Shown in pieces: positions 15,630 through 30,452 of a stretch of DNA of 32,000 bases (its first letter is position 1; each line of letters starts with the position of its first letter). The position numbers and the translations under genes were made by a program. The notes beneath the pieces are model-generated. The model was not told where the DNA came from. It searched no databases and saw only the letters and a program-made list of their open reading frames with translations. The DNA comes from Iningainema tapete BLCC-T55. Its GTDB lineage: Bacteria; Cyanobacteriota; Cyanobacteriia; Cyanobacteriales; Nostocaceae. The DNA is taken from NCBI RefSeq assembly GCF_014698965.1, contig NZ_JACXAE010000050.1:109439-141438 (forward strand). Direction: 5' to 3'.

Positions 15630-17285
15630 GTGTCAGCCAATCAGCCCTCCACCGATGAACTCCCAACGATAGAATTTCCCTCTAGAGGGAAACTCAAAGC
15701 TAGTTCTTGGCGCATCCATCAAAAAATTGGCTATGGGTACTTTTTGGCAATTGGAATCGGTTTTTTTGGTTCACTTACTGGATTAATAATTTCTAACTAC
15801 TACAGAGCATTGGAAATTAGACAATTAAATCATGCTACTTTTCAAGCTCAAATGTTAGCTGATTATAAGGAAGCATTAATAAGTGCACAAATAAATAGCT
15901 TCGGCTTAGTAGCTGTAATCGAAAATCCCGAAAAACTTGCCAGCAAGAAAACAGAATTTGAGAAAAGTGTTAAAAATGCCAAAGAAGTAGAGCGTAGAAT
16001 TACCAGCTTTCTTAAAGGTAAGCCAGGAAAATTAGCAGCAACTGAATCAACTTTACAAACTTTATTATATGAGTACTCCACAAATATAGATTCATACACA
16101 AGACAAATAGAGTCCGCCTTACAACAATTGCAACAGGGACAGACTACAGCTACGCGAAATAGGCTGTTAGCAATTATGGCTGGTGATACAGCAGTAGAAA
16201 TAGATCAGTTATGTAAAAGATTAAGTAACATTCTACAAAGCGCACAAGAACAAGAACAGGAAAAGAAAAAAGATTTAGATCAAGCAAAAGGAGTAGAAAG
16301 ATTAATTGTAATTGCGAGTATGCTACTATCAGTGGCGATCGCCGCAATTATAGCATGGCGAACTTCGCGAGCGATCGCAGAGCCAGTAATCACAGTAACT
16401 CAAGTTGCTGAACAAGTAGCAAAAAAATCTAATTTCGATTTACGCGCCCCCATCACCACCGAAGATGAAATTGGATTATTAGCCAAATCGCTCAATCGAC
16501 TGATCGAACAAGTATCTAAACACACAAAAGAATTAGAACAAGCCAAAGAACAAGCAGAATCTGCTAACAAAGCAAAAAGTCAGTTTCTTGCCAACATCAG
16601 TCACGAGTTACGTACACCATTAAATGCCATCATCGGCTTAAGCAAACTACTAGAAGATGATGCTGTCGATCTGAATTTAACAGATGACTTTATTGCCGAT
16701 CTTGAATCCATCAACTCTTCAGGAAGACACTTACTAACCTTAATCAACGATATCCTAGACTTATCAAAAATTGAAGCAGGTAAAATGACATTTTACCCAG
16801 AAACATTTGAGTTAGCCGCGTTAATTAATAACGTAGTCTTCACAGTCAAACCTTTAATAGAAATCAATGCCAATGTTTTAGAAGTTGACTTCGAGCAAGA
16901 ACTAGGTATCATGTATACTGACCAAACAAAGCTACGGCAAGTACTATACAATTTACTGAGTAACGCCGCCAAATTCACCACTAACGGAAAAGTAAAGCTT
17001 TTAGTAAAAAAAGAAAAAGTTGAAATAGATAACATCCTCAGTGAAATTATTATCTTTGCTGTTAGAGACACGGGAATTGGTATGTCATATGAGCAACAGC
17101 AGCAGTTATTTCAACCCTTTACTCAAGGAGATGCTTCCACTACGAAAAAGTATGGTGGTACAGGGTTAGGCTTAGCAATTAGCCGTCACTTTTGCCATAT
17201 GATGGGGGGTAATATTTTTGTCGAAAGTGAACCAGGAGTGGGTTCAATTTTCACAGTTAGCTTACCTTTGAAGGTTAAAGACTAG
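15630..17285 (+). CDS. Sensor histidine kinase (two TM helices, ~170-aa extracytoplasmic coiled-coil/CHASE3-like region, HAMP, HisKA, HATPase_c)
   Basis: GTG start. H-box [17 protein letters not shown]-box [11 protein letters not shown]1 DTGIGM, G2 [11 protein letters not shown]. There is no receiver domain and no adjacent response regulator. Confidence 0.85.
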
Positions 17286-17307: not shown

Positions 17308-17357
17308 CCTAGAACTGAAGTTCTAGGCTTATAGCTAAAGTCAGAAGACAGCTGACT
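17308..17357. repeat. 50-nt double-hairpin element, copy A (between the convergent kinase gene and the 123-aa gene)
   Basis: cctagaac tgaa gttctagg cttatagctaa agtcag aagacag ctgact. It matches the reverse complement of 17842-17891 at about 44/50 positions. Confidence 0.85.
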
Positions 17358-17371
17358 AAACTTTTGATTTA

Positions 17372-17743
17372 TTAAAAGGCATCAAAAAAGCCAGTAACTT
17401 CTGTCTTCACCACAAAGCCTTCCAAATTACTAGGTATAGATTTTTGCACCCCAGCATCTCGTAAGTAAACCACAATTACTTCCTGCCCAATTTCATTTCT
17501 TTGGATACCAACGCCAACCACCCCGTCAATAGATAGTAATCTCTGCTCGTGTTTTTGCTTAACACGCTCAATTTGAGATTGAGGATTCAGCGACATAGTA
17601 AAGGGCATAGCTACTTCTTCCACCAGTGGATTCAAATTAGGATTGTCAAAACTGGGATTTTGGTCTATTTCCATTGCCGCAATAGCTCCAGTAAAGTTGA
17701 AAAGTAATAACAGTATTGTAGAAAATATTAATCTCAGCATCAT
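17372..17743 (-). CDS. Small secreted protein, stand-alone paralogue of the N-terminal (pro-domain-like) region of the adjacent protease
   Basis: Signal peptide MMLRLIFSTILLLLFNFTGAIAA. The mature part aligns by eye with residues ~40-160 of the 386-aa protease: EEVAMP/EEAAMP, VGVGI/VGVGL, VIVVYL/INVYVV. Confidence 0.6.
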   Translation of the reverse strand: MMLRLIFSTILLLLFNFTGAIAAMEIDQNPSFDNPNLNPLVEEVAMPFTMSLNPQSQIERVKQKHEQRLLSIDGVVGVGIQRNEIGQEVIVVYLRDAGVQKSIPSNLEGFVVKTEVTGFFDAF

Positions 17744-17841
17744 GGCAAGTCGTCATTCCCCCAACTCCCCGATCCTCAGGAGGCACAAAAGGATCATGTT
17801 AAAAACTCAAGTCCAGCTTCAGCTAACTGCGTAACTCTTGC

Positions 17842-17891
17842 AGTCAGCTGTCTTCTGACTTGAGCTATTAGCCTTGAACTGAAGTTCAAGG
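17842..17891. repeat. 50-nt double-hairpin element, copy B (inverted; between the protease stop and the 123-aa gene)
   Basis: agtcag ctgtctt ctgact tgagctattag ccttgaac tgaa gttcaagg. Confidence 0.85.
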
Positions 17892-17903
17892 CGTAGTCAT
17901 CAT

Positions 17904-19064
17904 TTAGGTATAAAGGCTAACATCCAAAGCCCGCAACACAGTACGCATCTTGTTCGCAATAGTTAAGCCGCCACCACCAGCAAATAGCAAACCAACAGGG
18001 TTACGTTGATTATCCCAAGTCCAGATGGAAGAACCAGAGTCACCGCCAGCACTAAAGTCGCCGCCAAGACCACGTATAATAATCTGATCGCAGAACAAAG
18101 CAACACGACCACTACCGTAGTTCACCCTAACGCTAGCATTGATGTCAGTAATCTGACCTCTAGTTAACTGAGTTGTGCGTCCCGACTTGCCTACAATCAT
18201 GTTTAATTGAGGATCTCTAATCAGGCTGCTAATGCGGAAAAGTTCAGGCTTTCCGCCACTAAGATAGACTAGCTCACGACGAACGCGATCGGGCCAAGCC
18301 CAACCAGTGGCAGCATCAACATAGTTGCATCTGCCATCAAAGTAAATCGGAACGTACCGCTCTAAAATAGCGATGGGGTTTGGACTACAAGCATTCTTGC
18401 CACCATCATAAGGTCCAGGTTGGTAAATATGGTCGCCAAAACTAGCATTATTTGTGTTGGCAAGGACATGATTGTTGCTAAGAATCAAGAGCCGATTGGG
18501 GCGATAAGCCAGACAGCCTAATGTACCTGCTGTAATCTTGAAATGTCCCACAGAGACACCCCCAGGAGCAGGCCTCATACAGAATCGATGCGGTTGTACA
18601 TCGATAATTCCAGATACAACCACATTAATAGGAACATTATCGCTGGCAGCTGCTGAAATACCCATAGAGTCAACGAGAACAGATTTGATCTCATCTACGG
18701 AAGTTTGTTCTACAACATAGACATTGATTGCCGTAGCACCAGGTGTCAAACCTAAACTCGAAGGTTCATCAGGAACACCTAAACCAACACCAACAATGTT
18801 GTTAGCTCCTTGAGGAGCGAATAAGGCTTGTGAGCTTGAAACACCAACTAGTCGAGATAGTTGACTTTCAATCTGTGTTTTAATCTGCACCAGATTTTCA
18901 TCTACACCAGAATATTGATCTGCACTTGGTACAGGCATAGCTGCCTCTTCGGTATTAACATTTTCAGGTACAGCAGCTTCTTCAAACTCAGATTGCATCT
19001 GATACTGATTAGTTGTGCTTTCTGTGGGTATTTCAAATTCTTCGTTTGTTTGTGAGTTTGTCAT
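17904..19064 (-). CDS. Chymotrypsin-fold (S1-like) serine protease with acidic N-terminal extension and no signal peptide
   Basis: Catalytic triad context LILSNNHVLAN (His), CNYVDAATG (Asp) and AGGDSGSSIW (Ser). The N-terminal ~60 aa are acidic and low-complexity. Confidence 0.75.
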   Translation of the reverse strand: MTNSQTNEEFEIPTESTTNQYQMQSEFEEAAVPENVNTEEAAMPVPSADQYSGVDENLVQIKTQIESQLSRLVGVSSSQALFAPQGANNIVGVGLGVPDEPSSLGLTPGATAINVYVVEQTSVDEIKSVLVDSMGISAAASDNVPINVVVSGIIDVQPHRFCMRPAPGGVSVGHFKITAGTLGCLAYRPNRLLILSNNHVLANTNNASFGDHIYQPGPYDGGKNACSPNPIAILERYVPIYFDGRCNYVDAATGWAWPDRVRRELVYLSGGKPELFRISSLIRDPQLNMIVGKSGRTTQLTRGQITDINASVRVNYGSGRVALFCDQIIIRGLGGDFSAGGDSGSSIWTWDNQRNPVGLLFAGGGGLTIANKMRTVLRALDVSLYT

Positions 19065-19281
19065 GATTCACCTTTGTGTAATTGTAATTAAACTCTCTTT
19101 TGACCAGAGACAGGGTTTACTGAACCCATATCTATAGGTTCTTCGAGAAAATAAAAAGCGTCGATACTGATAAGTTAATAAGTTTTATTTGCTGAACTTA
19201 AGGTGAAAATTGTAGAGCAGGTCAGATAACTTCATAAAAACTCATAAAAATTTATTCAGTTGAGATTAAAAACTAGTTCAG

Positions 19282-19335
19282 CTTGGCGCTCTTCTCCTGG
19301 CGGAGACGCTGCGCGAAGGCGTCTTGGCGGTTCAT
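19282..19335. repeat. 54-bp inverted repeat, left copy
   Basis: cttggcgctcttctcctggcggagacgctgcgcgaaggcgtcttggcggttcat is the exact reverse complement of 23664-23717. I checked every base by hand. Confidence 0.95.
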
Positions 19336-19428
19336 AACTCAATTAAAATTGCCATAGCGTGACAATTTCTAAATTTAGGAAATAGAATAAGATATTAGAA
19401 AAATTTTGATAAAAAACCATCCTGAAAC

Positions 19429-21104
19429 ATGGATTTTGAAATAGTTCTACAAGTAACTGATGCCGCAGTTTTTGCCAAGATACGTAGACATTTAAAAGAC
19501 ATCGAAATCGCCATTCTTCGAGGATCTTGGCAAGGTCAAAATTATGATGATATCGCCAAAATTTATGGCTATACTCCCAAATACCTCAAACAATACGTTG
19601 GTCCGAGGTTATGGCATCTACTTTCAGAAGTACTGGGAGAAAAGGTAAGTAAAACAAACTTTCAAGCAGCACTGGAGAGGCGGGCAACAGTGAGGGAGTG
19701 GGGGAGTACAAGAGTGGGGGAATCTAACCCCCCTCTTCCCCCCGAAGTTCGGGGGGATTAAAGGAGGGTACAGATTGGGGAGAGGCAATTGATGTATCTG
19801 TTTTTTTTGGTCGCCATGATGAACTTACTACCCTCACTCAATGGATAATACAAGATCGCTGCCGTTTGGTAACAATATTAGGTATGGGAGGCATTGGTAA
19901 AACTACTCTCGCCGTTAAACTGGCACAACAAATCCAAGGTGAGTTTGAATACCTGATTTGGCGAAGTCTCCGTCATGCCCCACCCTTAGTCTCAATCTTG
20001 ACAGATTTAAACGAATTACTGACAAAAGAGTCACAAACCGTCATACCAGAAACTGTAGATTGTCAAATCTCCTGCCTGCTAAAAATCTTGCGGCGCAAGC
20101 GCTGTTTGCTCATCCTTGATGATTGGGAGACGGTTCTAAGTAGTGGAGACATAGCTGGCTACTATCGCCAAGGCTATGAAGGTTATGGAGAGTTGCTCAA
20201 GCGTGTAGGAGAAGAACCTCACCAAAGCACATTGGTATTCTTGAGTCGGGAAAAACCAATAGAATTAGCGGAACTTGCGGGTGTTACTTTACCTGTGCGT
20301 GTTTTGCTTCTCAAAGGTTTTCCGCGACAAGATGCTATAAAGCTTTTGGCGACAAAAGGTTTTTCTGAGACAGAAAAAGGTTTAGAAGAACTAATTCAAC
20401 TATACCGAGGTCATCCTACGGCGTTAAAAATTGTTGCCACCACAATTAAAGATTTATTTAATGGTAACATCTGCCAATTTATGCAGCAAAGTTCGTTAGT
20501 GATTGGAGATATTTTTTCTCATCTTTTGAACGAACAATTTGCACGTTTATCTTCTTTAGAAGAAAAAATTATGTACTGGTTGGCAATTGAATGTCAGCCA
20601 ATTTCACTTGAGCAATTAAAAACCAACTTAGGGGTTGGGGTATCTAGTTCTGAGTTACTAGCAGTGCTAGAATCTCTTTCCAGGCGATGTTTGATCGATA
20701 AGGCTAGTCTTTTGCTAATGGAACAAGAACAAACCTCGGTTGATAGTACAGCCTTGTTCACCCTCCAACCTGTGATCATGAAATATGTTACTAATTTATT
20801 TGTAGAAAAAATCTGCCAGAATATTATTGAAGTAATTAGAACCAAGTCTATTGAAAAACTAGGGTTACTTAGAACCCATGCCCTCGTTAAGCAGGAATCA
20901 GATGATGTCCAGCAGTGTCGGCAAGTGCGTCTCATACTTACACGGATTCAGGAGCGTCTACATTTGGTTATGGAAAATACCAATGCTATAAAAGAGCAGC
21001 TACAAAATCTGCTTTCACAATTACGTGGGTATCCCGGACGAGGAAATGGATACGCAGAATACAATCTACAAAAGCTGCTGAGAATAACAGAAACAGGGTG
21101 GTAA
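19429..21104 (+). pseudogene. STAND NTPase (HTH-like N-terminal cap + NB-ARC + winged helix, no C-terminal repeat array), split into two frames by a 1-nt offset
   Basis: Frame 1 (19429-19761) encodes ...AILRGSWQGQNYDDIAKIYGYTPKYLKQYVGPRLWHLLSEVLGEKVSKTNFQAALERR. I recognise this as the N-terminal cap recurrent on cyanobacterial NACHT/NB-ARC-WD40/TPR proteins; the database name, from memory, is 'vWA-MoxR associated protein N-terminal domain'. Frame 3 is open from 19728 and reads ...GTDWGEAIDVSVFFGRHDELTTLTQWIIQDRCRLVTILGMGGIGKTTLAVKLAQ. It carries the P-loop, Walker B CLLILDDWE, LVFLSREKP, GxP motif YRGHPTALKIVA and winged helix IMYWLAIECQPISLEQL. It could also be two real CDSs (19429-19761 and 19866-21104) or an assembly error. 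Confidence 0.7.
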
Positions 21105-21109
21105 CCGCC

Positions 21110-22750
21110 ATGATTTGTCCAGGAGTTATACTTCAAAATCGCTTCCGAGTTGTCCGTCAAATTGGTTGCGGTGGTTTTGGTCAGGTGTTTGAGGTGGATG
21201 ATGGCGGTACACTAAAAGTACTCAAAGTTCTCAGGTTAGAGCGTTTTTATAACCCAACAGTGAAAAATAAGGCGATCGCCCTATTCCAGCGAGAAGCCCA
21301 ATTGTTGAGTAAAATTCGGCATCCCGGCATTCCGCTGGTAGAGCCACCTGGATATTTTACTTGGAGTGAAGGTACAAGTGAGCCGTGGCACTGTCTAGTG
21401 ATGGAGAAAATACCAGGTACTAACTTAGAAGATTGGTTGCAAGCCAGAGGTAATCAACCCATCACCACAGAACAAGCCTGTGAATGGTTAACTCAGTTAG
21501 TAAAAATTATTCAAGAATTACATAAACATCAGTATTTTCACAGAGATATTAAACCATCAAACATTATGCTCAGACCAAACGGGCAGCTAGTGCTGATTGA
21601 TTTTGGTGCTGTGCGAGAAGTGACAACAAGCTACTTACAAAAACAAAAAGGTAACGAAACAGGTACTGTACTTATTTCTGCTGGTTACACACCGTCAGAA
21701 CAAGCTGAAGGTTATGCTGTGCCACAATCAGATTTTTTTGCTCTAGGACGTAGCTTTGTCTATTTACTTACTGGTAAATCACCATTGGAGTTTCCCAAAA
21801 ACCCCCAAACAGGAGAATTAATTTGGCGTGACGAGGCAAATGTATCACAGCATTTGGCAGATTTGATCGAGCGCCTCATGGCTCCTTTTCCTGGACAAAG
21901 ACCGCAAAATTGCCCAGAAATATTACAATACCTACAACAAACTCAACCATACTCCCTTTTGTCATTCGCGCAGACGATACCAGGTATTAGCTCTCTGGTA
22001 TCGAAGTGCAATGCCAAAGATACACCACGCCACAACAAAGGTTTTTATTTAGCTTTAGCTAGTTTATTGTTGTTAGGGGTTGGTGGCTTGTGGAATTTTT
22101 CCCCAACTATTGCTTCCCAATTAAATCGACAAGGGTTTGCTGACTATAAAAACAAACGTTTGAATGCTGCTGAGTTTTACTACAAATTAGCTCTAGTTTT
22201 TCAGCCCAAAAATCCCAAAGCTAATTACAACTTGGGAGTGCTTTACGAAGATCGACAAAATATGCCTAAAGCGCGTGCAGCTTACGAGATATCTGTTCAG
22301 CAGGGTTTTGATAAAGCTTATAACAACTTAGCGCGATTGTATATTTTGGACAACAAATCGGCACTCGCAATGCCTCTGCTCAATTCAGGTTTGCCACTTG
22401 CTCAAGAAACCACAACTAAATATGCAATGTTGAAAAACCTTGGTTGGGCGCAAATGAAATTGGGGCGTTACCAAGAGGCGGAAGTTAATCTGAAAAAGGC
22501 GATTGAACTGAGTGGCACGCGCTCTAGTGCTCATTGTCTCCAAGCTATGCTTTTAGAACGTCAAGGTAGTGTTTCTGTCGCTGCTTGGGATAAGTGTGAT
22601 AAATATTACAAGGACAATGATCCAGATGTAAAGCAGTGGATAGCGTCTCGTACCAAGAAAGATGAAAATTCAAAGGATTACTCTGTTGTATCCTCAGTTG
22701 TTAATGAGCGCGAACCGCAAAGACACAAAAAGAAAGGAATAGGGTTATGA
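21110..22750 (+). CDS. Membrane Ser/Thr protein kinase with extracytoplasmic C-terminal TPR/Sel1-like repeats
   Basis: The first ATG after the upstream TAA (21102-21104) is at 21110. Gly-loop IGCGGFGQVFEV, catalytic loop HRDIKPSNIM, IDFG, TM helix FYLALASLLLLGVGGLWNF, then TPR-like repeats (AEFYYKLALVFQPKNPKANYNLGVLYEDRQNMPKARAAYE...). Confidence 0.9.
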   Translation: MICPGVILQNRFRVVRQIGCGGFGQVFEVDDGGTLKVLKVLRLERFYNPTVKNKAIALFQREAQLLSKIRHPGIPLVEPPGYFTWSEGTSEPWHCLVMEKIPGTNLEDWLQARGNQPITTEQACEWLTQLVKIIQELHKHQYFHRDIKPSNIMLRPNGQLVLIDFGAVREVTTSYLQKQKGNETGTVLISAGYTPSEQAEGYAVPQSDFFALGRSFVYLLTGKSPLEFPKNPQTGELIWRDEANVSQHLADLIERLMAPFPGQRPQNCPEILQYLQQTQPYSLLSFAQTIPGISSLVSKCNAKDTPRHNKGFYLALASLLLLGVGGLWNFSPTIASQLNRQGFADYKNKRLNAAEFYYKLALVFQPKNPKANYNLGVLYEDRQNMPKARAAYEISVQQGFDKAYNNLARLYILDNKSALAMPLLNSGLPLAQETTTKYAMLKNLGWAQMKLGRYQEAEVNLKKAIELSGTRSSAHCLQAMLLERQGSVSVAAWDKCDKYYKDNDPDVKQWIASRTKKDENSKDYSVVSSVVNEREPQRHKKKGIGL

Positions 22751-23664
22751 GGTATGCTGTAATGGGTGCTAAGGGGAAACAAAGAAGTATTTTTCTCCTA
22801 TTTTTTGCTGTTTTGTTTTTGCTTTTGATTTTGGTTGTACCTGAGCGAATCGTGGCAGATGGTGGTAGGAGTAATGAGGTACTGGTTGCACAAAATTGTG
22901 GCAATGGTGATACCTCTGTAGCTCGTAGTCCTACTGATATTCCTTATGTGATTAGTCCTCGCAATACTTTATTATTATCTAATCAGCCAAAGCTACGCTG
23001 GAATTCTCTTTTGGATGCTAAAAGTTATACTGTAAGTCTGGTTAAGGGTGACAAAACTGTTTGGGAAACGACGGTAGGTAAAAATGAAGTTGTGTATCCA
23101 GGAAAACCAGTACTTGAGGCTGGGGTAGAGTATTTATTAAGTGTTAAAGCTGATAGTGGTAAGTCATCGGCAGAAGTACAAGAATCTGCACGGGGATTTA
23201 GGTTATTGCCTACTTCTGTTGCTCAAGTTGTTAAGGTGGCGATCGCTCAATTGAATAGTCAACAAATACCACAGAAGGTGAGAGGATTGGCGAGTGCTTA
23301 TATTTATAGTGGTGCTGATTTGAAGTCGGAGGCGATTGAAACGCTTGAGGCAATGGTGGCTGGTGGGGTTAAGGATGTTAGCGTGCATCATCAATTGGGG
23401 AATCTTTACTGGCTTACGGGTGTGAGTTTGCTCTCGGAGATTAATTATAAGGAAGCTGTTAAGTTGGCGAAGTCTTCTCAGGATTTGCCAGAATTGGCAG
23501 AGATTTCTTCTGCTTTGGGTAGGTTGTATGTGGCGATTGGGGAGAAAGGTGAGGCTGTTAAATGGTTTAGTCAAGCACGTGATGTTTATAAGGCTTTGGG
23601 TAATACGCTACGGGTTAGGGAGTTGAATGGGCAGGTGGATTTGATGAAGAGAAGTTTGATTTGA
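22747..23664 (+). CDS. Signal-anchored periplasmic protein: beta-rich N-domain + C-terminal TPR-like repeats
   Basis: Its ATG overlaps the kinase TGA (ATGA at 22747-22750). Hydrophobic anchor IFLLFFAVLFLLLILVV. C-terminal HHQLGNLYWLTG...ALGRLYVAIGEKGEAVKWFSQARDVYKALGN is TPR-like. I recognise no specific family. Confidence 0.7.
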   Translation: MRYAVMGAKGKQRSIFLLFFAVLFLLLILVVPERIVADGGRSNEVLVAQNCGNGDTSVARSPTDIPYVISPRNTLLLSNQPKLRWNSLLDAKSYTVSLVKGDKTVWETTVGKNEVVYPGKPVLEAGVEYLLSVKADSGKSSAEVQESARGFRLLPTSVAQVVKVAIAQLNSQQIPQKVRGLASAYIYSGADLKSEAIETLEAMVAGGVKDVSVHHQLGNLYWLTGVSLLSEINYKEAVKLAKSSQDLPELAEISSALGRLYVAIGEKGEAVKWFSQARDVYKALGNTLRVRELNGQVDLMKRSLI

Positions 23665-23717
23665 TGAACCGCCAAGACGCCTTCGCGCAGCGTCTCCGCC
23701 AGGAGAAGAGCGCCAAG
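23664..23717. repeat. 54-bp inverted repeat, right copy
   Basis: atgaaccgccaagacgccttcgcgcagcgtctccgccaggagaagagcgccaag. It starts on the last base of the stop codon of the 305-aa gene. Confidence 0.95.
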
Positions 23718-23831
23718 GAAAGAGGAAGAGAGGAAGAGAGGGGAGGTGTATCCGGAATGTGGTGATTTGATTTGGTAGCTATGTTTGTGCCAATTAATTT
23801 TGAAATCACTCTCGAAGTGGAGCTTTGTTGT

Positions 23832-24119
23832 ATGAGTTACCAAGGTTTATCTCAAGATAAAGATGCGCGTAAAGTTGAAGCGACTCTGTTGGTTGAACAT
23901 GCTAATCGGCAGTATGAGGAAGCTTTAATAGCTTACCAAAAGGCACGAGATATTTATCAGGAAATTGGTGAGCAGGTTTTTGCTACTCTTATTTCTCATC
24001 TGATTCAAGGCAACATTTCTAATGTTTCCAATACACAAGAGTTTGTTTCTCCTGTCAGACATACGAAGAACGATCAAGGCATTTGGGATAATCCCCCAAT
24101 TATTAATGGTCCTAAGTAA
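23832..24119 (+). CDS. Hypothetical small protein with a single TPR-like unit; possibly a remnant of a TPR gene
   Basis: The track ORF starts at 23772; the internal ATG at 23832 gives MSYQGLSQDKDARKVEATLLVEHANRQYEEALIAYQKARDIYQEIGEQ... The YxxAL-IYQEIG pattern resembles the TPR units of the CHAT protein downstream. I found no other support. Confidence 0.3.
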   Translation: MSYQGLSQDKDARKVEATLLVEHANRQYEEALIAYQKARDIYQEIGEQVFATLISHLIQGNISNVSNTQEFVSPVRHTKNDQGIWDNPPIINGPK

Positions 24120-24262: not shown

Positions 24263-24457
24263 ATGACTACCAATTTAGTCAAAAATATTACTGATAAGTC
24301 AAAATCTGAGCATCCTTGGATGAAATTTGCGGGTAAGTATAAGGATGACCCACAATTCGATGATATGCTGGCGGATATAGAAGTATATCGACGTGAACGA
24401 GATGCAGAAATGGCAGAATATTACCGACAACTGGACGCTGAGGAAGAGCAAGCGTGA
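24263..24457 (+). CDS. Small acidic antitoxin-like protein (partner of the PIN gene)
   Basis: 64 aa; PWMKFAGKYKDDPQFDDMLADIEVYRRERDAE matches a motif I recall from cyanobacterial antitoxins encoded upstream of VapC genes. Its stop overlaps the downstream GTG (GTGA). Confidence 0.6.
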   Translation: MTTNLVKNITDKSKSEHPWMKFAGKYKDDPQFDDMLADIEVYRRERDAEMAEYYRQLDAEEEQA

Positions 24458-24714
24458 GTTTAGCTTTAGTATTAGCTTACACACAATTGCAAGAAACATT
24501 AGAAGATTTTAAAACTATCAACGTACTCGAATTCAATCCAAATGCTGCTAATTGCTACACAAAATTACTCAAGCAAAAAATTCGTATCGGTACGCAAGAT
24601 TTACGAATTGCGGCAATTGTAACTTCTCTTAATGGCATTTTAGTAACGCGCAACCAACGAGATTTTTTGCCTGTACCTGGCTTGCACTTTGAAGATTGGA
24701 CAATCGAGGATTAG
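24454..24714 (+). pseudogene. VapC-type PIN-domain toxin, N-terminally truncated (C-terminal ~2/3 only)
   Basis: ...IGTQDLRIAAIVTSLNGILVTRNQRDFLPVPGLHFEDW is the canonical VapC C-terminus. The frame is closed by TGA at 24439-24441, so about 40-50 N-terminal residues, including the first catalytic Asp (DTN motif), are missing. Confidence 0.7.
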
Positions 24715-24747
24715 TGCGCTCAAAATGACATTGAATAATTAATTACT

Positions 24748-25008
24748 ATGCAGAAAACTGACACAAACGCACTTAAACCTATCTTGGACTATTTACCAGA
24801 ACGTATTAAACAGGCAATAGAGGAATACTCTCAAGAAACCCAACTTCCCCCGGAATTGGTGATTGAGTTGGCGATAGCTCATTTCTTAGATGTAGACTCT
24901 GTGACTTTTGACGATTGTCGGATTGAGTCACCAGGTATTCTTAGAGAACAGAATAAAATCCTCAAGATTCAGTTAGCAGCTATCGAGGGTGCTCGCTCAA
25001 GTACGTAG
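24748..25008 (+). CDS. Conserved small protein, copy 1 (86 aa; possibly RHH/DUF2811-like)
   Basis: It is a paralogue of 31725-32000. Most nucleotide differences between the copies are synonymous, so both copies appear to be under purifying selection. LPPELVIELAIAHFL resembles RHH/antitoxin-like helices, but this assignment is weak. Confidence 0.7.
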   Translation: MQKTDTNALKPILDYLPERIKQAIEEYSQETQLPPELVIELAIAHFLDVDSVTFDDCRIESPGILREQNKILKIQLAAIEGARSST

Positions 25009-25066: not shown

Positions 25067-27934
25067 ATGCGTTTACCCGATCTTAACTGGCGCTTGGCGA
25101 TCGCTGCAATGCTTCTCGGACTGACTTCGCCACTGTATCCACAACCAGTATTAACAACCACTATCTCCCATTCAACCTTTCAACAAGCAAAGCAATTGTA
25201 TGACTTGGGGGTTGAGCAATATAATCAACGTCAGTTCTCACAAGCTCTCAAAACTTATCAAAAAGTTCTCGAAATTTATCGGCATGGTAAACAAGAGGAT
25301 ATTGCCAAAACTCTCTACGCTATCGGAATCACTTACATCCAACTAGCTCAATATCAAAACGCCAGCGATTTCCTCAATCAAGCATTGGTACTTTACCGTA
25401 ATATAGGCGAGCGCCACAGAATTTGTGATACTCTCAATAGCTTGGGGGCAGTTTACAATCATCTCGGTAATTATTCACAAGCACTCTCTTACTATCAGCA
25501 AGCTTTGGCGATTAGCCCAGAAGTAGGTGTAACTGCTGATATCCTTAATAATATTGGTGGAATCTATCAAGCTACAGGGCAGTATAATAAAGCATTAGAA
25601 TACTATCAGCGCACTCTTGATATCCACCAGAAAATTGGTAATAAGACAAGTATAGCCCACACTCTTAACAGTATTGGGGGAGTGTATTATGAACAGGGGC
25701 AGTATTCCCAAGCACTTAAGCTTTCTCAGCTTGCTTTAGCGAATGCTCAATCTGCTCAAAATTTGCGAGAGCAAGGCAATATTCTTAATAACATTGGATT
25801 AATTGAGAGTGAACTCGGTCAATATATTTCAGCTATACAATATTATCAGCAAAGCTTGGCAATCCGCCGCAAAATAGGTGACTATTCAGGCGTTGGTACG
25901 ACACTGAATAATCTTGGCTTCGCCTACAATCACATGAAGAAGCATTCCCAAGCCTTAGAATTTTATCAGCAAGCTTATTCTGTTTTTAGAAGTATTGGTA
26001 ATCAGGCAAATGTTGGTAAAACTCTCAATAATATTGGCTTTACTTATCAAGCTTTGGGGCAGTATTCTCTAGCACTCAAGTCTCTTGAAGAAGCGTTGGC
26101 TATTCTTCAAAAAGTAGGCACTCGCCCTTCGGTTGGGCGTACTCTCGATAGTATAGGAACTGTTTACAAAAGTTTAGGTAAGTATTCCCAAGCTTTAGAA
26201 GCATATCAACAAGCGTTAGTCATTAGTCGGGAAGCAGCGCAACGGCAAACTGTTCGAGTTATCTTAAGTAATATAGGCGATGTGCTAGCAAAACAAAACC
26301 AGCCAAAATTAGCCATTATTTTCTACAAGCAATCAGTTAACGTTACCGAAGCCATTCGCAAAGAATTGCGATCGCTTGCACCTAAACAACAGCAATCTTA
26401 CACAGTAACCATAGCTGATACCTATCGCCGACTTGCAGATTTGCTGTTACAAGAAGACAGAGTGTTAGAAGCACAACAAGTTTTGGATTTACTCAAAGTA
26501 CAAGAATTAGATGATTATCTACGTAATGTACGGGGAAACGAAAAAACTGCCTTGGGTATTGATGCATTACCACCTGAGAAACAAATTAATGATGGCTTAG
26601 ATACCATTTTAAATAGACAAATTCAACTAGGTAAAAAACTTGCTGAATTACAAAACATTCCCCTCGACAAACGCAATCAAGAGCAAGTTAACCAGATAGC
26701 ACAGATTACTAAACAACAGCAGGAAATTAGCCAAGAATTTAACGAATTTCTCAAGAGTGAGGAAGTTGTTGCGGCATTAGCACAGTTAAATTCTACAGCA
26801 AGACAGCAAAGTGTGCCTCTTCGGTTACTGAAAACCTTGCCAGATAACTTACAACGGTTGAACCAAAATGCCGTATTGCTGTATCCTTTAATATTAGAAA
26901 ATCGTTTAGAATTGGTATTAACAACGCCTTACACACCCCCAATTCGTCGTAAAGTTGAGGTGAAAAAGGAAGAACTCAACCGGGCGATTGTTGAGTTACG
27001 GCAAGCTTTAGAAAATCCCGATGCAAATGTCAAAGTTGCAGCACAAAAATTGTATAACTGGTTAATTAAACCGATAGAAAAAGAACTTGCTGCCGCCAAT
27101 GCCAAAACTATCATTTACGCGCCCGATGGGCAGTTACGTTACATTCCTTTATCTGCTTTATATGATGGTAAACAGTGGCTGGTACAACGTTTCCGTACTA
27201 ACTATATTACTGCTGTGAGTTTAACAGAACTCGACACTAAACCTTTACCAAAAATTCAAATTTTAGCAGGGGCAACTACAGGTCGTCACATTGTTACAGT
27301 TGGATCTGCTGCGTTAGCATTTTCTAGTTTACCATATGCAGGAGCGGAAGTAGAAAATTTGGCGGCGATGATGCCGGGAACTAAGAAACTTTTAGATAGT
27401 GAATTTAGTCGCGAAAAAACTATCCCTTTTTTGAACAATTATACTTTTGTACATATGGCGACTCATGCCATGTTTGTGACGGGAAAGCCAGAAGATTCTT
27501 TTATTTTGTTGGGTGATGGTGATAAGATCACGTTGGCTGAAATTCAAAACTGGTCACTTCCTAATGTAGATTTAGTAGTTTTAAGTGGTTGTCAAACAGC
27601 TATAAGTGGTAATGGCGAAGAGATTTTGGGGTTTGGCTATCAGATGCAAGATGCAGGCGCAAGAGCAGCAATCGCTTCTTTATGGAAAGTAAATGATGGT
27701 GGTACACAAGCGTTGATGAGTACTTTTTATGCAGCGTTGCGTCAAGGCATTACCAAGGCAGAAGCTTTACGCTACAGCCAAATTGCCATGATTACAGGCA
27801 ACTACTCAGAAATAGCGCCACAAGACAGAGGAATTCTTCAATCAACACGCGATCGCTTACCGCCGAAGGTGACAGATCGTCTCAGTCACCCCTATTACTG
27901 GGCACCTTTTATTTTAATTGGCAATGGTTTGTAA
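25067..27934 (+). CDS. Secreted TPR-repeat / CHAT-domain (caspase-like) protease
   Basis: Signal-like N-terminus MRLPDLNWRLAIAAMLLGLTSPLYP, then about 9-10 TPR_12-type units (LNxIGxVYxxxGxYxxALxYYQQAL). After a coiled-coil region comes a CHAT domain with His FVHMATHAMF and Cys LVVLSGCQTA, ending HPYYWAPFILIGN. Confidence 0.9.
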   Translation: MRLPDLNWRLAIAAMLLGLTSPLYPQPVLTTTISHSTFQQAKQLYDLGVEQYNQRQFSQALKTYQKVLEIYRHGKQEDIAKTLYAIGITYIQLAQYQNASDFLNQALVLYRNIGERHRICDTLNSLGAVYNHLGNYSQALSYYQQALAISPEVGVTADILNNIGGIYQATGQYNKALEYYQRTLDIHQKIGNKTSIAHTLNSIGGVYYEQGQYSQALKLSQLALANAQSAQNLREQGNILNNIGLIESELGQYISAIQYYQQSLAIRRKIGDYSGVGTTLNNLGFAYNHMKKHSQALEFYQQAYSVFRSIGNQANVGKTLNNIGFTYQALGQYSLALKSLEEALAILQKVGTRPSVGRTLDSIGTVYKSLGKYSQALEAYQQALVISREAAQRQTVRVILSNIGDVLAKQNQPKLAIIFYKQSVNVTEAIRKELRSLAPKQQQSYTVTIADTYRRLADLLLQEDRVLEAQQVLDLLKVQELDDYLRNVRGNEKTALGIDALPPEKQINDGLDTILNRQIQLGKKLAELQNIPLDKRNQEQVNQIAQITKQQQEISQEFNEFLKSEEVVAALAQLNSTARQQSVPLRLLKTLPDNLQRLNQNAVLLYPLILENRLELVLTTPYTPPIRRKVEVKKEELNRAIVELRQALENPDANVKVAAQKLYNWLIKPIEKELAAANAKTIIYAPDGQLRYIPLSALYDGKQWLVQRFRTNYITAVSLTELDTKPLPKIQILAGATTGRHIVTVGSAALAFSSLPYAGAEVENLAAMMPGTKKLLDSEFSREKTIPFLNNYTFVHMATHAMFVTGKPEDSFILLGDGDKITLAEIQNWSLPNVDLVVLSGCQTAISGNGEEILGFGYQMQDAGARAAIASLWKVNDGGTQALMSTFYAALRQGITKAEALRYSQIAMITGNYSEIAPQDRGILQSTRDRLPPKVTDRLSHPYYWAPFILIGNGL

Positions 27935-28151: not shown

Positions 28152-30452
28152 ATGAGCAATGGTAAAAATACGAACCATAGCGGCTTGCCTAAATTAGAAT
28201 TGGAAGACAATCAAAAGGCAAGTAGGAGCAGGAACCGCTCCGCTCCCCCCTCGATCAATCTGCTGTCAAAACTTCTACAAGTGATTACAAACTTGGCAGC
28301 AAAGATAGTAACTGGACTCACCCAGCTATCTTCTCAATTGTCTAGGAGCATGAAAAGAGGCGCGTTGATCACCACGCTCCTGACAGTAACCATTATAGTT
28401 GGACACAGTGTCTCAGCGCAGATCACTGCGCTACCTCCACTTAACCAGGTAAAGGTTCCAGAACCAGATAATCTTGGGGACTTTATCCAGAACAAGGTAG
28501 CGGCGATCGCACTAGGAAAGTCTCTTTTCTGGGATATGCAGCTGGGCAGCGATGGCATTCAATCTTGTGCCAGTTGTCACTTTCATGCCGGAGCAGACAA
28601 CAGATCCAAAAACCAGATCAGTCCAGGTTTACGGGATAGAAATTTCACTACTGGAGGTGGTCCGAACTACCAACTGACAGCAGCAGATTACCCCTTCCAT
28701 AAGCTGGCAGATCCGAATAACATATCCTCAAATGTTGTTTCTGACAGTAATGACGTGACTGGCTCTCAGGGAGTCTTTAGATCAGAATTTGTTGATGTCG
28801 TTCCAGGCAGTGACAAAGACAAGGTGACGCCTCTAGAGGATGACGTCTTCAATGTGAATGGTACAAATGTACGCAGAGTAACGCCCCGCAATTCACCGAC
28901 AGTGATCAACGCAGTGTTCAACTTTCGTAACTTCTGGGACGGACTGGCTCAGAACACTTTTAACGGGGTGAATCCCTTGGGGTTGAGAGATAAAAATGCT
29001 TTTGTTTTAAAAGCAACTAGACCAAGGCGGCTAGAAGATGTGGCAATCAGTCTCAATAATTCGTCTCTAGCTTCACAAGCAGTAGGACCGCCACTCAATG
29101 CTCTTGAGACTGCGTCTGAAAACTTACCGATCGCGCCATTTAGGGTTGAAGAGTCCGAAACAGAGGATACAGTTAGTGTGTTCAACGCACAAGGTCAGAC
29201 TGTTAACAATAACGCTGATGCGGAGCGCTCAACGGATGCTAACTCCACAGAGCAACAACTTCAGGCGTCAGATAGTCCGCGTTTTAGAAGGATAGGTAGG
29301 AAACTTGGTAAGAAACTACTTTCTGTACAGCCCCTTGCTAAGCAGATTGTGGCTTATGATGACAGCGTTTTGGGTTCTTTAAGCAAATCTACTGCGCGAT
29401 CGCCTAGACCTGGTTTGAAAAAGTCTTATGAGGCGCTGATCGAAGATGCCTTCAAGCCGGAGTGGTGGCGTTCCAATATCATCATCCGCATCGATCCACA
29501 AACTGGCAAGCGAACTTTCTTGCGCAAGCCGCAGCGACGCTTGAGTACCATCGAATACACGCTGATGGAGTACAACTTCTCGCTTTTCTTTGGGCTAGCA
29601 GTTCAGGCATACGAGTCAACACTAGTGTCTGCTAATACACCATTTGACCAGTTCTTAGCTGGAAACACTAATGCTCTGACTACCCAGCAACAACAAGGTT
29701 GGAACATTTTCCAAAACAAGGGTTTGTGCATTGGCTGCCATGCCGGAGCGGAATTGACGCAAGCGTCAGTAAGCAGCGTCGCTCAAAGGGGACGAATTAC
29801 TCGTGCGCCCTTTGGTCCAAGACGCCCTGAGGACACTGGCTTCTTCAGTATCGGTGTCAGACCTGCTAGCGAAGACCCCGGTTTGGGTGGTAATGATGGT
29901 ATAGATGGTAATGATGAGTTCGGAAATCCACAGGGCAATCCACTGTCGGAGGTACGACTAGCTCAGCAAGGGACATTTCAGCAGCTCTTGGGCGAAAACC
30001 CTCCTACCCTCAATCCCCCGCTTAGCTCTACTGAACCTGTAACTGCAGACGGAGCCTTCAAAACACCGGGACTCCGCAATGTGGAACTCACTGCTCCCTA
30101 CTTCCACAATGGTGGTCAGTTGACTCTAGAGCAAGTAGTTGATTTTTACAATCGGGGCGGTGACTTTGGCGGTTTACCTGTGCTGAACCTCACACCAGAG
30201 GAAAAACAATCGCTAGTTGCGTTTATGAAAGGGTTGACTGATGAGCGAGTCCGCTTTCAAAGAGCGCCCTTCGATCACCCGCAACTGTTCGTTCCTAACG
30301 GACATCCAGGAAACCAAAACTCCGTCACCAACGATCCCAACGTCCAAACCCAAGACGGTGTTCGGCAAGCTACGGATGCTCTGTTAGAAATCCCGGCTGT
30401 TGGTCGTAACGGTGGTAATCCTCTGCCAAACTTCCTGGGAGCAACTCCCTAA
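28152..30452 (+). CDS. Di-haem cytochrome c peroxidase / MauG family protein, enlarged (766 aa)
   Basis: Two CXXCH motifs: LGKSLFWDMQLGSDGIQSCASCHFHAG and NKGLCIGCHAG. Distal motif FKTPGLRNVELTAPYFHNGGQLTLEQVVDFYNRGG. An internal ATG at 28350 (MKRGALITTLLTVTIIVGHSVSAQ, signal-peptide-like, preceded by aggag) may be the true start. Confidence 0.85.
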   Translation: MSNGKNTNHSGLPKLELEDNQKASRSRNRSAPPSINLLSKLLQVITNLAAKIVTGLTQLSSQLSRSMKRGALITTLLTVTIIVGHSVSAQITALPPLNQVKVPEPDNLGDFIQNKVAAIALGKSLFWDMQLGSDGIQSCASCHFHAGADNRSKNQISPGLRDRNFTTGGGPNYQLTAADYPFHKLADPNNISSNVVSDSNDVTGSQGVFRSEFVDVVPGSDKDKVTPLEDDVFNVNGTNVRRVTPRNSPTVINAVFNFRNFWDGLAQNTFNGVNPLGLRDKNAFVLKATRPRRLEDVAISLNNSSLASQAVGPPLNALETASENLPIAPFRVEESETEDTVSVFNAQGQTVNNNADAERSTDANSTEQQLQASDSPRFRRIGRKLGKKLLSVQPLAKQIVAYDDSVLGSLSKSTARSPRPGLKKSYEALIEDAFKPEWWRSNIIIRIDPQTGKRTFLRKPQRRLSTIEYTLMEYNFSLFFGLAVQAYESTLVSANTPFDQFLAGNTNALTTQQQQGWNIFQNKGLCIGCHAGAELTQASVSSVAQRGRITRAPFGPRRPEDTGFFSIGVRPASEDPGLGGNDGIDGNDEFGNPQGNPLSEVRLAQQGTFQQLLGENPPTLNPPLSSTEPVTADGAFKTPGLRNVELTAPYFHNGGQLTLEQVVDFYNRGGDFGGLPVLNLTPEEKQSLVAFMKGLTDERVRFQRAPFDHPQLFVPNGHPGNQNSVTNDPNVQTQDGVRQATDALLEIPAVGRNGGNPLPNFLGATP

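Follow-up and report, generated by a model that had tools for sequence, protein, structure and literature searches.

STAND/NLR ATPases are thought to require a repeat sensor in cis for release from autoinhibition. How such a switch is governed when its protein carries no repeats is the question raised by a locus of the cyanobacterium Iningainema tapete BLCC-T55, contained in a 32,000-nt stretch of contig NZ_JACXAE010000050.1 (positions 109,439 to 141,438, forward strand; hereafter the window, whose numbering is used throughout). A helix-turn-helix (HTH)/NB-ARC protein is encoded there ahead of a membrane Ser/Thr kinase with tetratricopeptide repeats (TPRs), a 305-aa protein (p305), a small open reading frame (ORF) and a protein joining TPRs to a CHAT peptidase domain (TPR-CHAT). 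A reading of the sequence alone had proposed that the NB-ARC protein, the kinase and p305, together with a divergently encoded protease, form a STAND-centred unit with a possible role in conflict or anti-phage defence. Comparison with related genomes instead resolves the locus into two nested associations: one of the NB-ARC gene with the kinase gene, and one of the kinase, with its transmembrane (TM) helix and TPRs, with p305, the small ORF and TPR-CHAT. As far as we could find, the cluster is a real, conserved and apparently undescribed module that is neither linked to the protease nor centred on the STAND gene.

A repeat-less clade of HTH/NB-ARC proteins encoded beside sensor kinases

The NB-ARC module (19773-21104, plus strand) scores 53.3 bits against the Pfam profile PF00931 (cut-off 23.5) and retains Walker A (GMGGIGKTT) and Walker B (LLILDDWE) sequences; the GMGGIGKT and DD..E motifs are invariant among 36 NB-ARC sequences. 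An AlphaFold2 (AF2) model with a predicted local distance difference test (pLDDT) score of 78 comprises a nucleotide-binding domain (NBD), a helical domain, a winged helix and a C-terminal domain of four helices. Profile, Walker motifs and the NBD-helical-winged-helix architecture together place the protein among the NB-ARC/AP-ATPase STAND proteins. The top Foldseek matches of the model are Roq1, ZAR1, RPP1, Cdc6/Orc1 and MalT (8bob), and the best sequence matches in the PDB are plant CNLs. As had been noticed from the sequence, the protein lacks repeats in cis (no WD40, TPR or LRR match in Pfam) and continues for about 110 aa beyond the winged helix, a region that is helical in the model. This C-terminal helical domain (aa 333-440) is conserved, and the protein ends 0-10 aa past the region common to its relatives, to which the WD40-bearing clade adds about 660 aa.

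The N-terminal domain is encoded by an ORF of 110 aa (19429-19761, plus strand) of the HTH_VMAP-M9 type, named in UniRef 'vWA-MoxR associated protein N-terminal HTH domain'; PF26355 matches the intact homologues. The short NB-ARC proteins begin with PF26355 (HTH_VMAP-M9), HTH_26/XRE or GerE. Every member examined has an HTH at this end, and none has an enzymatic effector or a death-fold or effector-associated domain (EAD) adaptor. DNA binding by the VMAP-M9-type HTH is predicted from the domain assignment.

When 185,579 species genomes were scanned, at least 79 loci with NB-ARC relatives 41-54% identical came up, and in most of them the reading frame runs on through about 660 aa of WD40 repeats. 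This set excludes the closest genomes, including Iningainema itself, and closer homologues were added by exact look-up. In a neighbour-joining tree of 93 NB-ARC modules that includes these additions, the repeat-less forms make up one clade. Each homologue is one polypeptide, 520-640 aa long, that begins with an HTH, so the repeat-less architecture that had been remarked on is a genuine and conserved one, and the worry that the gene might be a pseudogene in all relatives does not hold. In their N-terminal HTH types and their C-terminal helical domain, the WD40-bearing relatives (41-48% identity) agree with the short forms. The conserved short clade and an intact copy in a sister strain, described below, rule out that the NB-ARC protein is a truncated WD40 protein or its gene a pseudogene.

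What distinguishes the repeat-less clade is the gene that follows. After dereplication, a Ser/Thr kinase gene lies less than 400 nt downstream in 9 of 15 repeat-less lineages, compared with 0 of the 70 listed WD40-bearing relatives (Fisher p = 1.2e-8). The spacing ranges from a 4-nt overlap to 212 nt, and six lineages have an overlap or a gap below 25 nt. The adjacent kinases are 41-80% identical to the kinase domain of the window, as against at most 35% for unlinked kinases at the same loci. The tight packing first seen in the window was borne out on rechecking the sequence: the NB-ARC stop codon TAA (21102-21104) and the kinase ATG (21110-21112) are separated by 5 nt, and the kinase TGA overlaps the p305 ATG in the sequence ATGA (22747-22750).

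The C-terminal regions of the partner kinases vary. They consist of a TM helix and TPRs in the clade of the window and of seven WD40 repeats in Limnofasciculus and a Coleofasciculaceae metagenome-assembled genome; one partner (L038) joins a zinc ribbon and the kinase to a Peripla_BP_6/ANF receptor, and another (L065) combines a zinc ribbon and a kinase. The separation of sensing from switching proposed at the outset takes a definite form, in which repeat or sensor domains are carried by the partner kinase and not by the NB-ARC protein. Two further loci bear on these arrangements. In Calothrix sp. FI2-JRJ7 (L051 7574-13411) a 615-aa zinc-ribbon-kinase-TM protein is encoded directly 5' of a WD40-bearing XRE-HTH-NB-ARC protein of 1261 aa; its kinase domain is 47% identical to that of the window and belongs to the same subfamily, which extends the link between kinase and HTH-NB-ARC beyond the repeat-less clade, with the gene order reversed. 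At L032 (630-4160) a locus of the WD40-bearing clade, a short NB-ARC ORF ends and a pentapeptide/WD40 ORF of its own begins 18 nt further on; either NB-ARC and its sensor are naturally split here or the break is a frameshift.

The kinase belongs to a conserved four-gene module

The second association starts from the kinase (21110-22750, plus strand; 546 aa). Its kinase domain (nt 21146-21928) matches PF00069 with 106 bits over aa 13-273, and the translation contains the Hanks-type motifs GCGGFGQVF (GxGxxG), KVLKVL (the Lys), HRDIKPSN and DFG. With these and the Walker motifs intact, kinase and NB-ARC module both look active. A single hydrophobic segment (aa 312-330; TM helix, nt 22043-22099) is followed by TPRs (about nt 22145-22627), the order of elements that had been described from the sequence; their extracytoplasmic location is predicted. 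The next gene encodes p305 (22747-23664, plus strand), likewise as described, with an N-terminal TM segment or signal anchor (aa 11-32), a beta-sandwich (aa 68-153) and a TPR domain (TPR_12; aa 156-304). The same three parts appear in a structural model (pLDDT 84), for which Foldseek returns only generic TPR proteins in the PDB. The N-domain gives weak matches to fn3 (8 of 38 members) and DUF928 (2 of 38), and the family is narrow: clustering at 90% identity gives 44 clusters, and every one comes from filamentous cyanobacteria.

The small conserved ORF (23832-24119, plus strand, with an alternative start at 23772) encodes 95 aa with one TPR-like motif and no leader, a product predicted to be cytoplasmic. 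By position and sequence it is the counterpart of ORFs of 96-121 aa in three related loci (L087-L089) and of TPR proteins of 192-209 aa in two others (L085/L086). The fourth gene (25067-27934, plus strand) encodes the TPR-CHAT protein of 955 aa, with a signal-like N-terminus, about nine TPRs and a CHAT domain (aa 658-953, nt 27038-27925; PF12770, 206 bits) in which the catalytic His (ATHA) and Cys (SGCQT) motifs are present. By profile and motifs it is a CHAT peptidase, putatively active. Hydrophobicity shows the expected TM and signal segments in kinase, p305 and TPR-CHAT. In Scytonema sp. PRP1 (L089 11633-14571) two ORFs, one of 118 aa with the signal peptide and one of 879 aa, take the place of a single TPR-CHAT gene, a further case of a disrupted component in this family of clusters.

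Close relatives of p305 (at least 46% identity) are encoded in the order kinase, p305, small ORF, TPR-CHAT wherever the flanking DNA suffices, and the module is collinear at L080, L085-L089 and L094-L101. Compared with the window, the kinase domain is 66-80% identical, p305 48-57% and TPR-CHAT 55-65%. The unit had been thought to end at 23717, a coordinate that is in fact the right arm of an inverted repeat; the conserved cluster reaches the end of TPR-CHAT at 27934. A short NB-ARC gene stands directly 5' of the kinase in the window and its sister strain, in Nostoc sp. (L080/81/94), in Nostoc GBBB01 and relatives (L085/97/101), in Microcoleus (L086) and at L100, and in seven further cases NB-ARC and p305 homologues are on a contig of equal length. 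The predicted trio of NB-ARC, kinase and 305-aa protein is thus collinear in Nostoc, Microcoleus and metagenomic relatives.

The extracytoplasmic part is reused with other cytoplasmic domains

Ahead of every p305 relative with 30-42% identity stands a gene that is homologous to the TM-TPR half of the kinase but lacks the kinase domain. They fall in two kinds of cluster. In class A the order is TPR-CHAT, a protein with a helical domain, TM helix and TPRs, and a FecR-like-p305 protein, an arrangement also found on plasmid pANSO36D. In class B it is a sigma-like protein, DUF1822, a cytoplasmic CHAT-TM-TPR protein, a p305-like protein and a TPS/haemagglutinin protein. Both classes resemble the cluster of the window in that homologues of its TM-TPR and p305 genes are immediate neighbours and a CHAT gene is close by; they differ in that a cytoplasmic CHAT or helical domain replaces the kinase and, except at one locus (L117), in the absence of NB-ARC. 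Deeper relatives thus keep the TM-TPR, p305-like and CHAT genes while the cytoplasmic domain is swapped, which, as judged from sequence comparison, makes this trio the ancient part and the kinase one among several heads on the cytoplasmic side.

Literature searches found no published description of class A or class B clusters. The trio is widespread in filamentous cyanobacteria and their plasmids, yet uncharacterised, and since it plugs into varied cytoplasmic outputs it offers a tractable way to learn what exported caspase-like proteases do in bacteria. The 36-kb plasmid pANSO36D of Nostoc cf. commune SO-36 (L146 7402-13994) encodes TPR, p305-like, TPR and CHAT-TPR proteins in that order, all four with generic annotation only in RefSeq, and p305-like genes occur on 25 cyanobacterial plasmids. 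At the class B locus L117 (4335-9341; DUF1822/TPS-haemagglutinin) a divergent short XRE-HTH-NB-ARC gene (520 aa) lies between the cytoplasmic-CHAT-TM-TPR gene and the p305-like gene.

The NB-ARC gene of the window is frameshifted

The HTH/NB-ARC protein had been taken as one ORF. In the window, the HTH ORF (19429-19761) is in frame 1 and the NB-ARC ORF is in frame 0, opening only at 19728, and the GenBank annotation has the two parts as separate proteins. The NB-ARC, kinase, HTH and protease sequences of the window are identical to GenBank/RefSeq entries of I. tapete BLCC-T55, which belongs to the Nostocales. DNA alignment to a near-identical strain (L145, Logan assembly) places the break in a linker with a C/G run (frameshift zone 19728-19760, plus strand), where the window has one base fewer at about 19734/19735: the window reads CCCCCCT-CTTCCCCCC and L145 reads CCCCCCTATTTCCCCCC. 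The L145 protein is an intact HTH-NB-ARC protein of 558 aa. Because a 1-nt deletion divides the HTH from the ATPase, the NB-ARC arm in this genome would be inactive or decaying, unless the missing base is an assembly error.

A candidate kinase-to-STAND signalling pathway

With the sensor on the kinase and an HTH on a sensor-less NB-ARC protein, the best fit is a STAND transcription factor under kinase control. Our tentative reading of the locus, to which we give somewhat less than an even chance, is a trans-envelope pathway from kinase to STAND transcription factor that would be fed by an extracytoplasmic TPR-CHAT sensor; it is drawn from domain content and from likeness to the AfsK/AfsR pair of Streptomyces and to DdvA of Myxococcus xanthus, both compared below. 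We infer the direction and chemistry of signalling as follows. TPR-CHAT, p305 and the TPR part of the kinase would assemble outside the cytoplasmic membrane, and the assembly would answer an envelope or extracellular cue, probably by CHAT proteolysis of a partner. This response would alter kinase activity, and the kinase might then act on the NB-ARC protein by phosphorylation or direct binding, its input standing in for the cis repeat sensor that releases STAND autoinhibition. ATP-bound NB-ARC protein would oligomerise and its N-terminal HTH would shift transcription. If true, coupling a sensor-less clade to a sensor kinase would be a second way to control STAND switches, and the pathway a kinase-based analogue of two-component signalling in cyanobacteria.

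Several observations weigh against such a pathway. The kinase/p305/CHAT module occurs without an adjacent NB-ARC gene in at least five lineages: no NB-ARC gene stands 5' of the four genes in Nostocales HT-58-2, Brasilonema, Scytonema PRP1 or three metagenomic relatives, and in the first three (L087-L089) the module follows metK and a HAMP histidine kinase, the same site as in the window. Conversely, Hassallia (L082) has the NB-ARC gene at the conserved site with the kinase module absent, and in Brasilonema UFV-L1 (L084) gene and module are on different contigs. Modules without an NB-ARC gene and NB-ARC genes without an adjacent kinase make the link facultative. With kinase, p305, small ORF and TPR-CHAT intact in at least five genomes that lack the NB-ARC gene, and the kinase domain itself exchanged in deeper relatives, the notion of a STAND-centred unit had to be given up. 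The frameshift in the window copy points the same way. In addition, the type of HTH is also found in proteins assigned to conflict systems, gene adjacency alone is what suggests phosphorylation of the NB-ARC protein by the kinase, and export of TPR-CHAT is predicted from a simple reading of hydrophobicity, not by a signal-peptide predictor.

The facultative link could mean that the NB-ARC gene and the kinase/p305/CHAT module are functionally independent and merely adjacent, the module being self-contained and the NB-ARC gene a separate regulator that is prone to settle or persist beside kinase genes and is being lost here. The complete modules at the metK site, the solitary NB-ARC genes of L082 and L084 and the frameshift would all follow, and the inverted repeat described below brackets part of the cluster only. 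We nevertheless regard independence as unlikely, as the adjacency recurs with three unrelated kinase sensor architectures in different genomic contexts, is confined to one NB-ARC clade and one kinase subfamily with the significance given above, and involves an overlap or a very short gap in six lineages; the near-identical strain L145, moreover, keeps its NB-ARC gene intact. The simplest history is an ancestral locus with both NB-ARC gene and module followed by differential loss, a trend that the window frameshift fits. Natural comparison strains exist in which the NB-ARC gene is present, absent or frameshifted.

We hold it to be no more probable that the locus serves multicellular bacteria in conflict or defence as an NLR-like system, in which exported TPR/CHAT proteins and the kinase would sense an invader or non-kin and the NB-ARC protein would be the switch. 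Its output would be CHAT proteolysis, kinase-mediated shutdown or HTH-driven expression of an effector, protective or suicidal. NB-ARC, CHAT and kinase domains do recur in predicted conflict systems of filamentous bacteria (PMC7159879, PMC8195603), the HTH type takes its name from VMAP conflict proteins, plant immune NLRs are the closest solved relatives of the nucleotide-binding oligomerisation domain (NOD), and DdvA controls a CRISPR-Cas system (PMC6061681). The distribution is patchy with gene loss, some neighbourhoods contain toxin-antitoxin genes, an integrase and an HNH gene, and related modules lie on plasmids. Nothing specific points to an anti-phage role, however: no PADLOC or NCBIfam system matches except through the generic kinase catalytic domain, and the NB-ARC protein carries an HTH at its N-terminus, as STAND transcription factors do, and has no EAD-type adaptor or enzymatic effector there. 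Across orders the orthologues share 50-80% identity and are syntenic, beside the housekeeping genes metK, PRK, glgC and dnaJ in most genomes, a degree of conservation not usual for fast-evolving immune sensors, and the sensor and effector proteins are predicted to lie outside the cytoplasm, where phage components are not normally met.

A more specific proposal, which we find still less probable, is a bacterial counterpart of receptor-kinase-to-NLR immunity. An exported caspase-like protease and TPR scaffolds would sense a threat at the envelope or outside the cell, or contact with non-kin, the kinase would relay the signal and the sensor-less NLR ATPase would trigger a transcriptional or suicidal response, the sensing complex being interchangeable between kinase, CHAT and other cytoplasmic outputs.

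A reversed flow, in which an NB-ARC oligomer gathers kinases and activates them by proximity in the manner of an apoptosome while the HTH tethers it or serves autoregulation, is very unlikely: STAND ATPases typically activate partners by induced proximity, the plant NLR-kinase pairs ZAR1-RKS1 and Prf-Pto reportedly use an NB-ARC switch with a separately encoded kinase-fold partner in sensing, the NB-ARC gene comes first in the operon and its C-terminal helical domain could dock a partner, but the repeat-less NB-ARC protein has no evident signal input, every partner kinase has a sensor domain, and the kinase module occurs in genomes without an NB-ARC gene.

Inverted repeats, neighbouring genes and the protease

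A perfect 54-nt inverted repeat (left arm 19282-19335, right arm 23664-23717) brackets the HTH/NB-ARC, kinase and p305 genes. It was examined as a possible dispersed element or cassette boundary: no further copy was found in the window or the other fetched loci, and its folding is no better than that of shuffled sequence (z = -1.1). At the site of the left arm, strain L145 carries another palindrome, which is GC-rich. Directly after the right arm lies a polypurine tract, GGAAAGAGGAAGAGAGGAAGAGAGGGGAGG (about 23716-23745), and GC skew peaks at +0.38 in 23001-24000. The best promoter-like site, GTGACA-18-TAGAAT (19359-19388, plus strand; 10/12), is 40 nt 5' of the HTH ATG and is a consensus match only; the count of such sites is not above the expectation from shuffled sequence.

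Between the small ORF and TPR-CHAT, three toxin-antitoxin-like ORFs (64, 86 and 86 aa; 24263-25008, plus strand) form an insertion that does not belong to the conserved cluster and is absent from L085-L089. The first two overlap by 4 nt, toxin-antitoxin style, and the second resembles by eye the C-terminal part of a PIN toxin, with no Pfam match. A gene for a di-haem cytochrome c peroxidase/MauG-like protein of 766 aa (28152-30452) lies 3' of TPR-CHAT and is not at this position in related loci. The upstream neighbour of the cluster region is the HAMP histidine kinase gene (15630-17285).

The protease-like ORF (17904-19064, minus strand; 386 aa, putative chymotrypsin fold) is as the sequence-only reading had it, with an acidic N-terminus and no hydrophobic leader, and lies 364 bp from the HTH ATG; its place in the module did not survive comparison. 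A tblastn search of about 140 loci anchored on NB-ARC or p305 relatives gave 0 matches to it. Its neighbourhoods elsewhere are unrelated, and it has a conserved partner ORF of its own; membership in the module is ruled out on these three grounds. The proposal of a split-architecture STAND system is upheld in part: sensor domains sit on the partner kinase, but the protease falls outside the unit and the unit is not centred on the STAND protein.

H199, D250 and S343 of the protease are invariant among 17 homologues. The match to Nal1_C is below the Pfam cut-off (19.3 bits, cut-off 26.1), and the sole PDB sequence match is weak (1hpg, E = 0.023). The family has more than 7,700 matches, with 56-72% identity across Cyanobacteria, Acidobacteria and Deinococcus. 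In the window the protease and an ORF of 123 aa (17372-17743, minus strand) form a two-gene unit outside the module (17372-19064, minus strand). A protease followed by a small ORF 52-54% identical to the 123-aa ORF is also found in a cyanobacterial metagenome contig and a Pyrinomonadaceae genome, in surroundings unrelated to the window locus (units of protease and a partner of about 95-120 aa at L090 6001-7721 and L093 6001-8037). An EEAAMP-like motif and, after it, an I-E-x-V-K...GVxGVG segment occur in both protease and partner, which makes the small partner protein look like a free copy of the protease N-terminal region. The true start of the 123-aa ORF is probably M24, as its hydrophobic first 23 aa are missing from homologues. 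A 50-nt inverted repeat, 88% complementary (17308-17357 and 17842-17891), brackets this small ORF 3' of the protease. In the Pyrinomonadaceae genome (L093 8325-12980) the protease unit adjoins a zf-HC2 protein and a DUF928-TPR-CHAT fusion of 1551 aa, a single chain that, with its DUF928-like domain, TPRs and CHAT, parallels the combination of p305 and TPR-CHAT.

Comparison with known systems

The statement that the gene combination matches no named system stands: PADLOC-DB v2 and NCBIfam give no catalogued match beyond the kinase catalytic domain. In PADLOC-DB v2 the NB-ARC protein is hit only at E of at least 3e-4, TPR-CHAT only by generic TPR models, and p305, the protease and the small ORFs not at all. 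The PD-T4-6 model PDLC04051 scores 350 bits over the catalytic domain only (aa 6-282; profile 28-298 of 476), leaving the TM-TPR half unmatched. MADS is defined by MAD6, MAD7 and MAD8 with methylase and specificity genes (bioRxiv 10.1101/2023.03.30.534895); here the NCBIfam MAD6 model reaches 96.6 bits against a cut-off of 460 and mad8 18 bits, and Pfam detects no methylase in the cluster. Assignment to MADS or BREX is thereby ruled out, as the catalytic domain of the kinase alone matches, and that domain is likewise all that would speak for PD-T4-6, a single-gene Ser/Thr kinase defence. Nor is this the VMAP/vWA-MoxR ternary system, since no vWA or MoxR domain occurs in the ten ORFs of 15.6-30.5 kb or in the called genes of L080-L089. 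Literature searches on DUF1822/CHAT, DUF928/CHAT and NB-ARC with cyanobacterial kinases did not find a description of the cluster.

Among STAND proteins, the protein departs from the canonical tripartite plan of Avs, bNACHT and Apaf-1-like NLRs in having neither a C-terminal repeat sensor nor an N-terminal effector. It shares the NOD core with Avs, bNACHT and the cyanobacterial HTH-NB-ARC-WD40 proteins; these are single polypeptides with a C-terminal repeat sensor, to which Avs adds an enzymatic N-terminal effector, whereas the present clade has neither. Plant NLRs are close in structure, ZAR1 being among the closest solved NODs, but they retain LRRs and, as effector, a coiled-coil (CC) domain, work with (pseudo)kinases of the cytoplasm and lead to cell death, not DNA binding. 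MalT/GutR-type STAND transcription factors likewise fuse an HTH to a STAND NOD, and MalT (8bob) is among the top structural matches. Theirs is a C-terminal LuxR-type HTH with a cis inducer-binding arm; the present protein has it at the N-terminus and lacks a sensor arm.

For the extracytoplasmic side, the nearest likeness is to the DdvS/DdvA pair of M. xanthus. The anti-sigma factor DdvA has an extracytoplasmic TPR and CHAT domain and controls a transcription factor; in the transmembrane pathway that leads to this factor, the extracytoplasmic TPR-CHAT unit is the proposed sensor (PMC6061681). In the present cluster TPR-CHAT is a separate protein, predicted to be exported, with a signal-like N-terminus only; a Ser/Thr kinase is the putative transducer in place of a zf-HC2 anti-sigma factor, and the cytoplasmic output would be an HTH-NB-ARC protein in place of a sigma factor of the extracytoplasmic function (ECF) family, no sigma factor being encoded in the cluster.

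For the cytoplasmic side it is to AfsK/AfsR, a Hanks-type kinase bearing a repeat sensor and, encoded nearby, an NB-ARC regulator that binds DNA. The regulator, the STAND protein AfsR, is phosphorylated by AfsK; its NOD and TPR domains keep its DNA-binding domain autoinhibited, the NOD gating that domain in an ATP-dependent manner (PMC10936776); the pair in the window is known from gene adjacency alone. AfsR has an N-terminal SARP region (OmpR-type wHTH plus BTAD) and C-terminal TPRs in cis, whereas the HTH here is VMAP-M9, XRE or GerE, with no cis TPR; the match to the NCBIfam AfsR model reaches 19 bits (cut-off 1430) and covers the NOD only, and Pfam gives no BTAD or Trans_reg_C match. The genes of the present pair are, moreover, directly adjacent, probably co-translated, cyanobacterial and joined to a CHAT module predicted to be exported. 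As far as we could find, what is new here is this combination, in which a pairing of Ser/Thr kinase and STAND regulator of a known kind is joined to an uncharacterised, putatively exported TPR-CHAT sensing unit.

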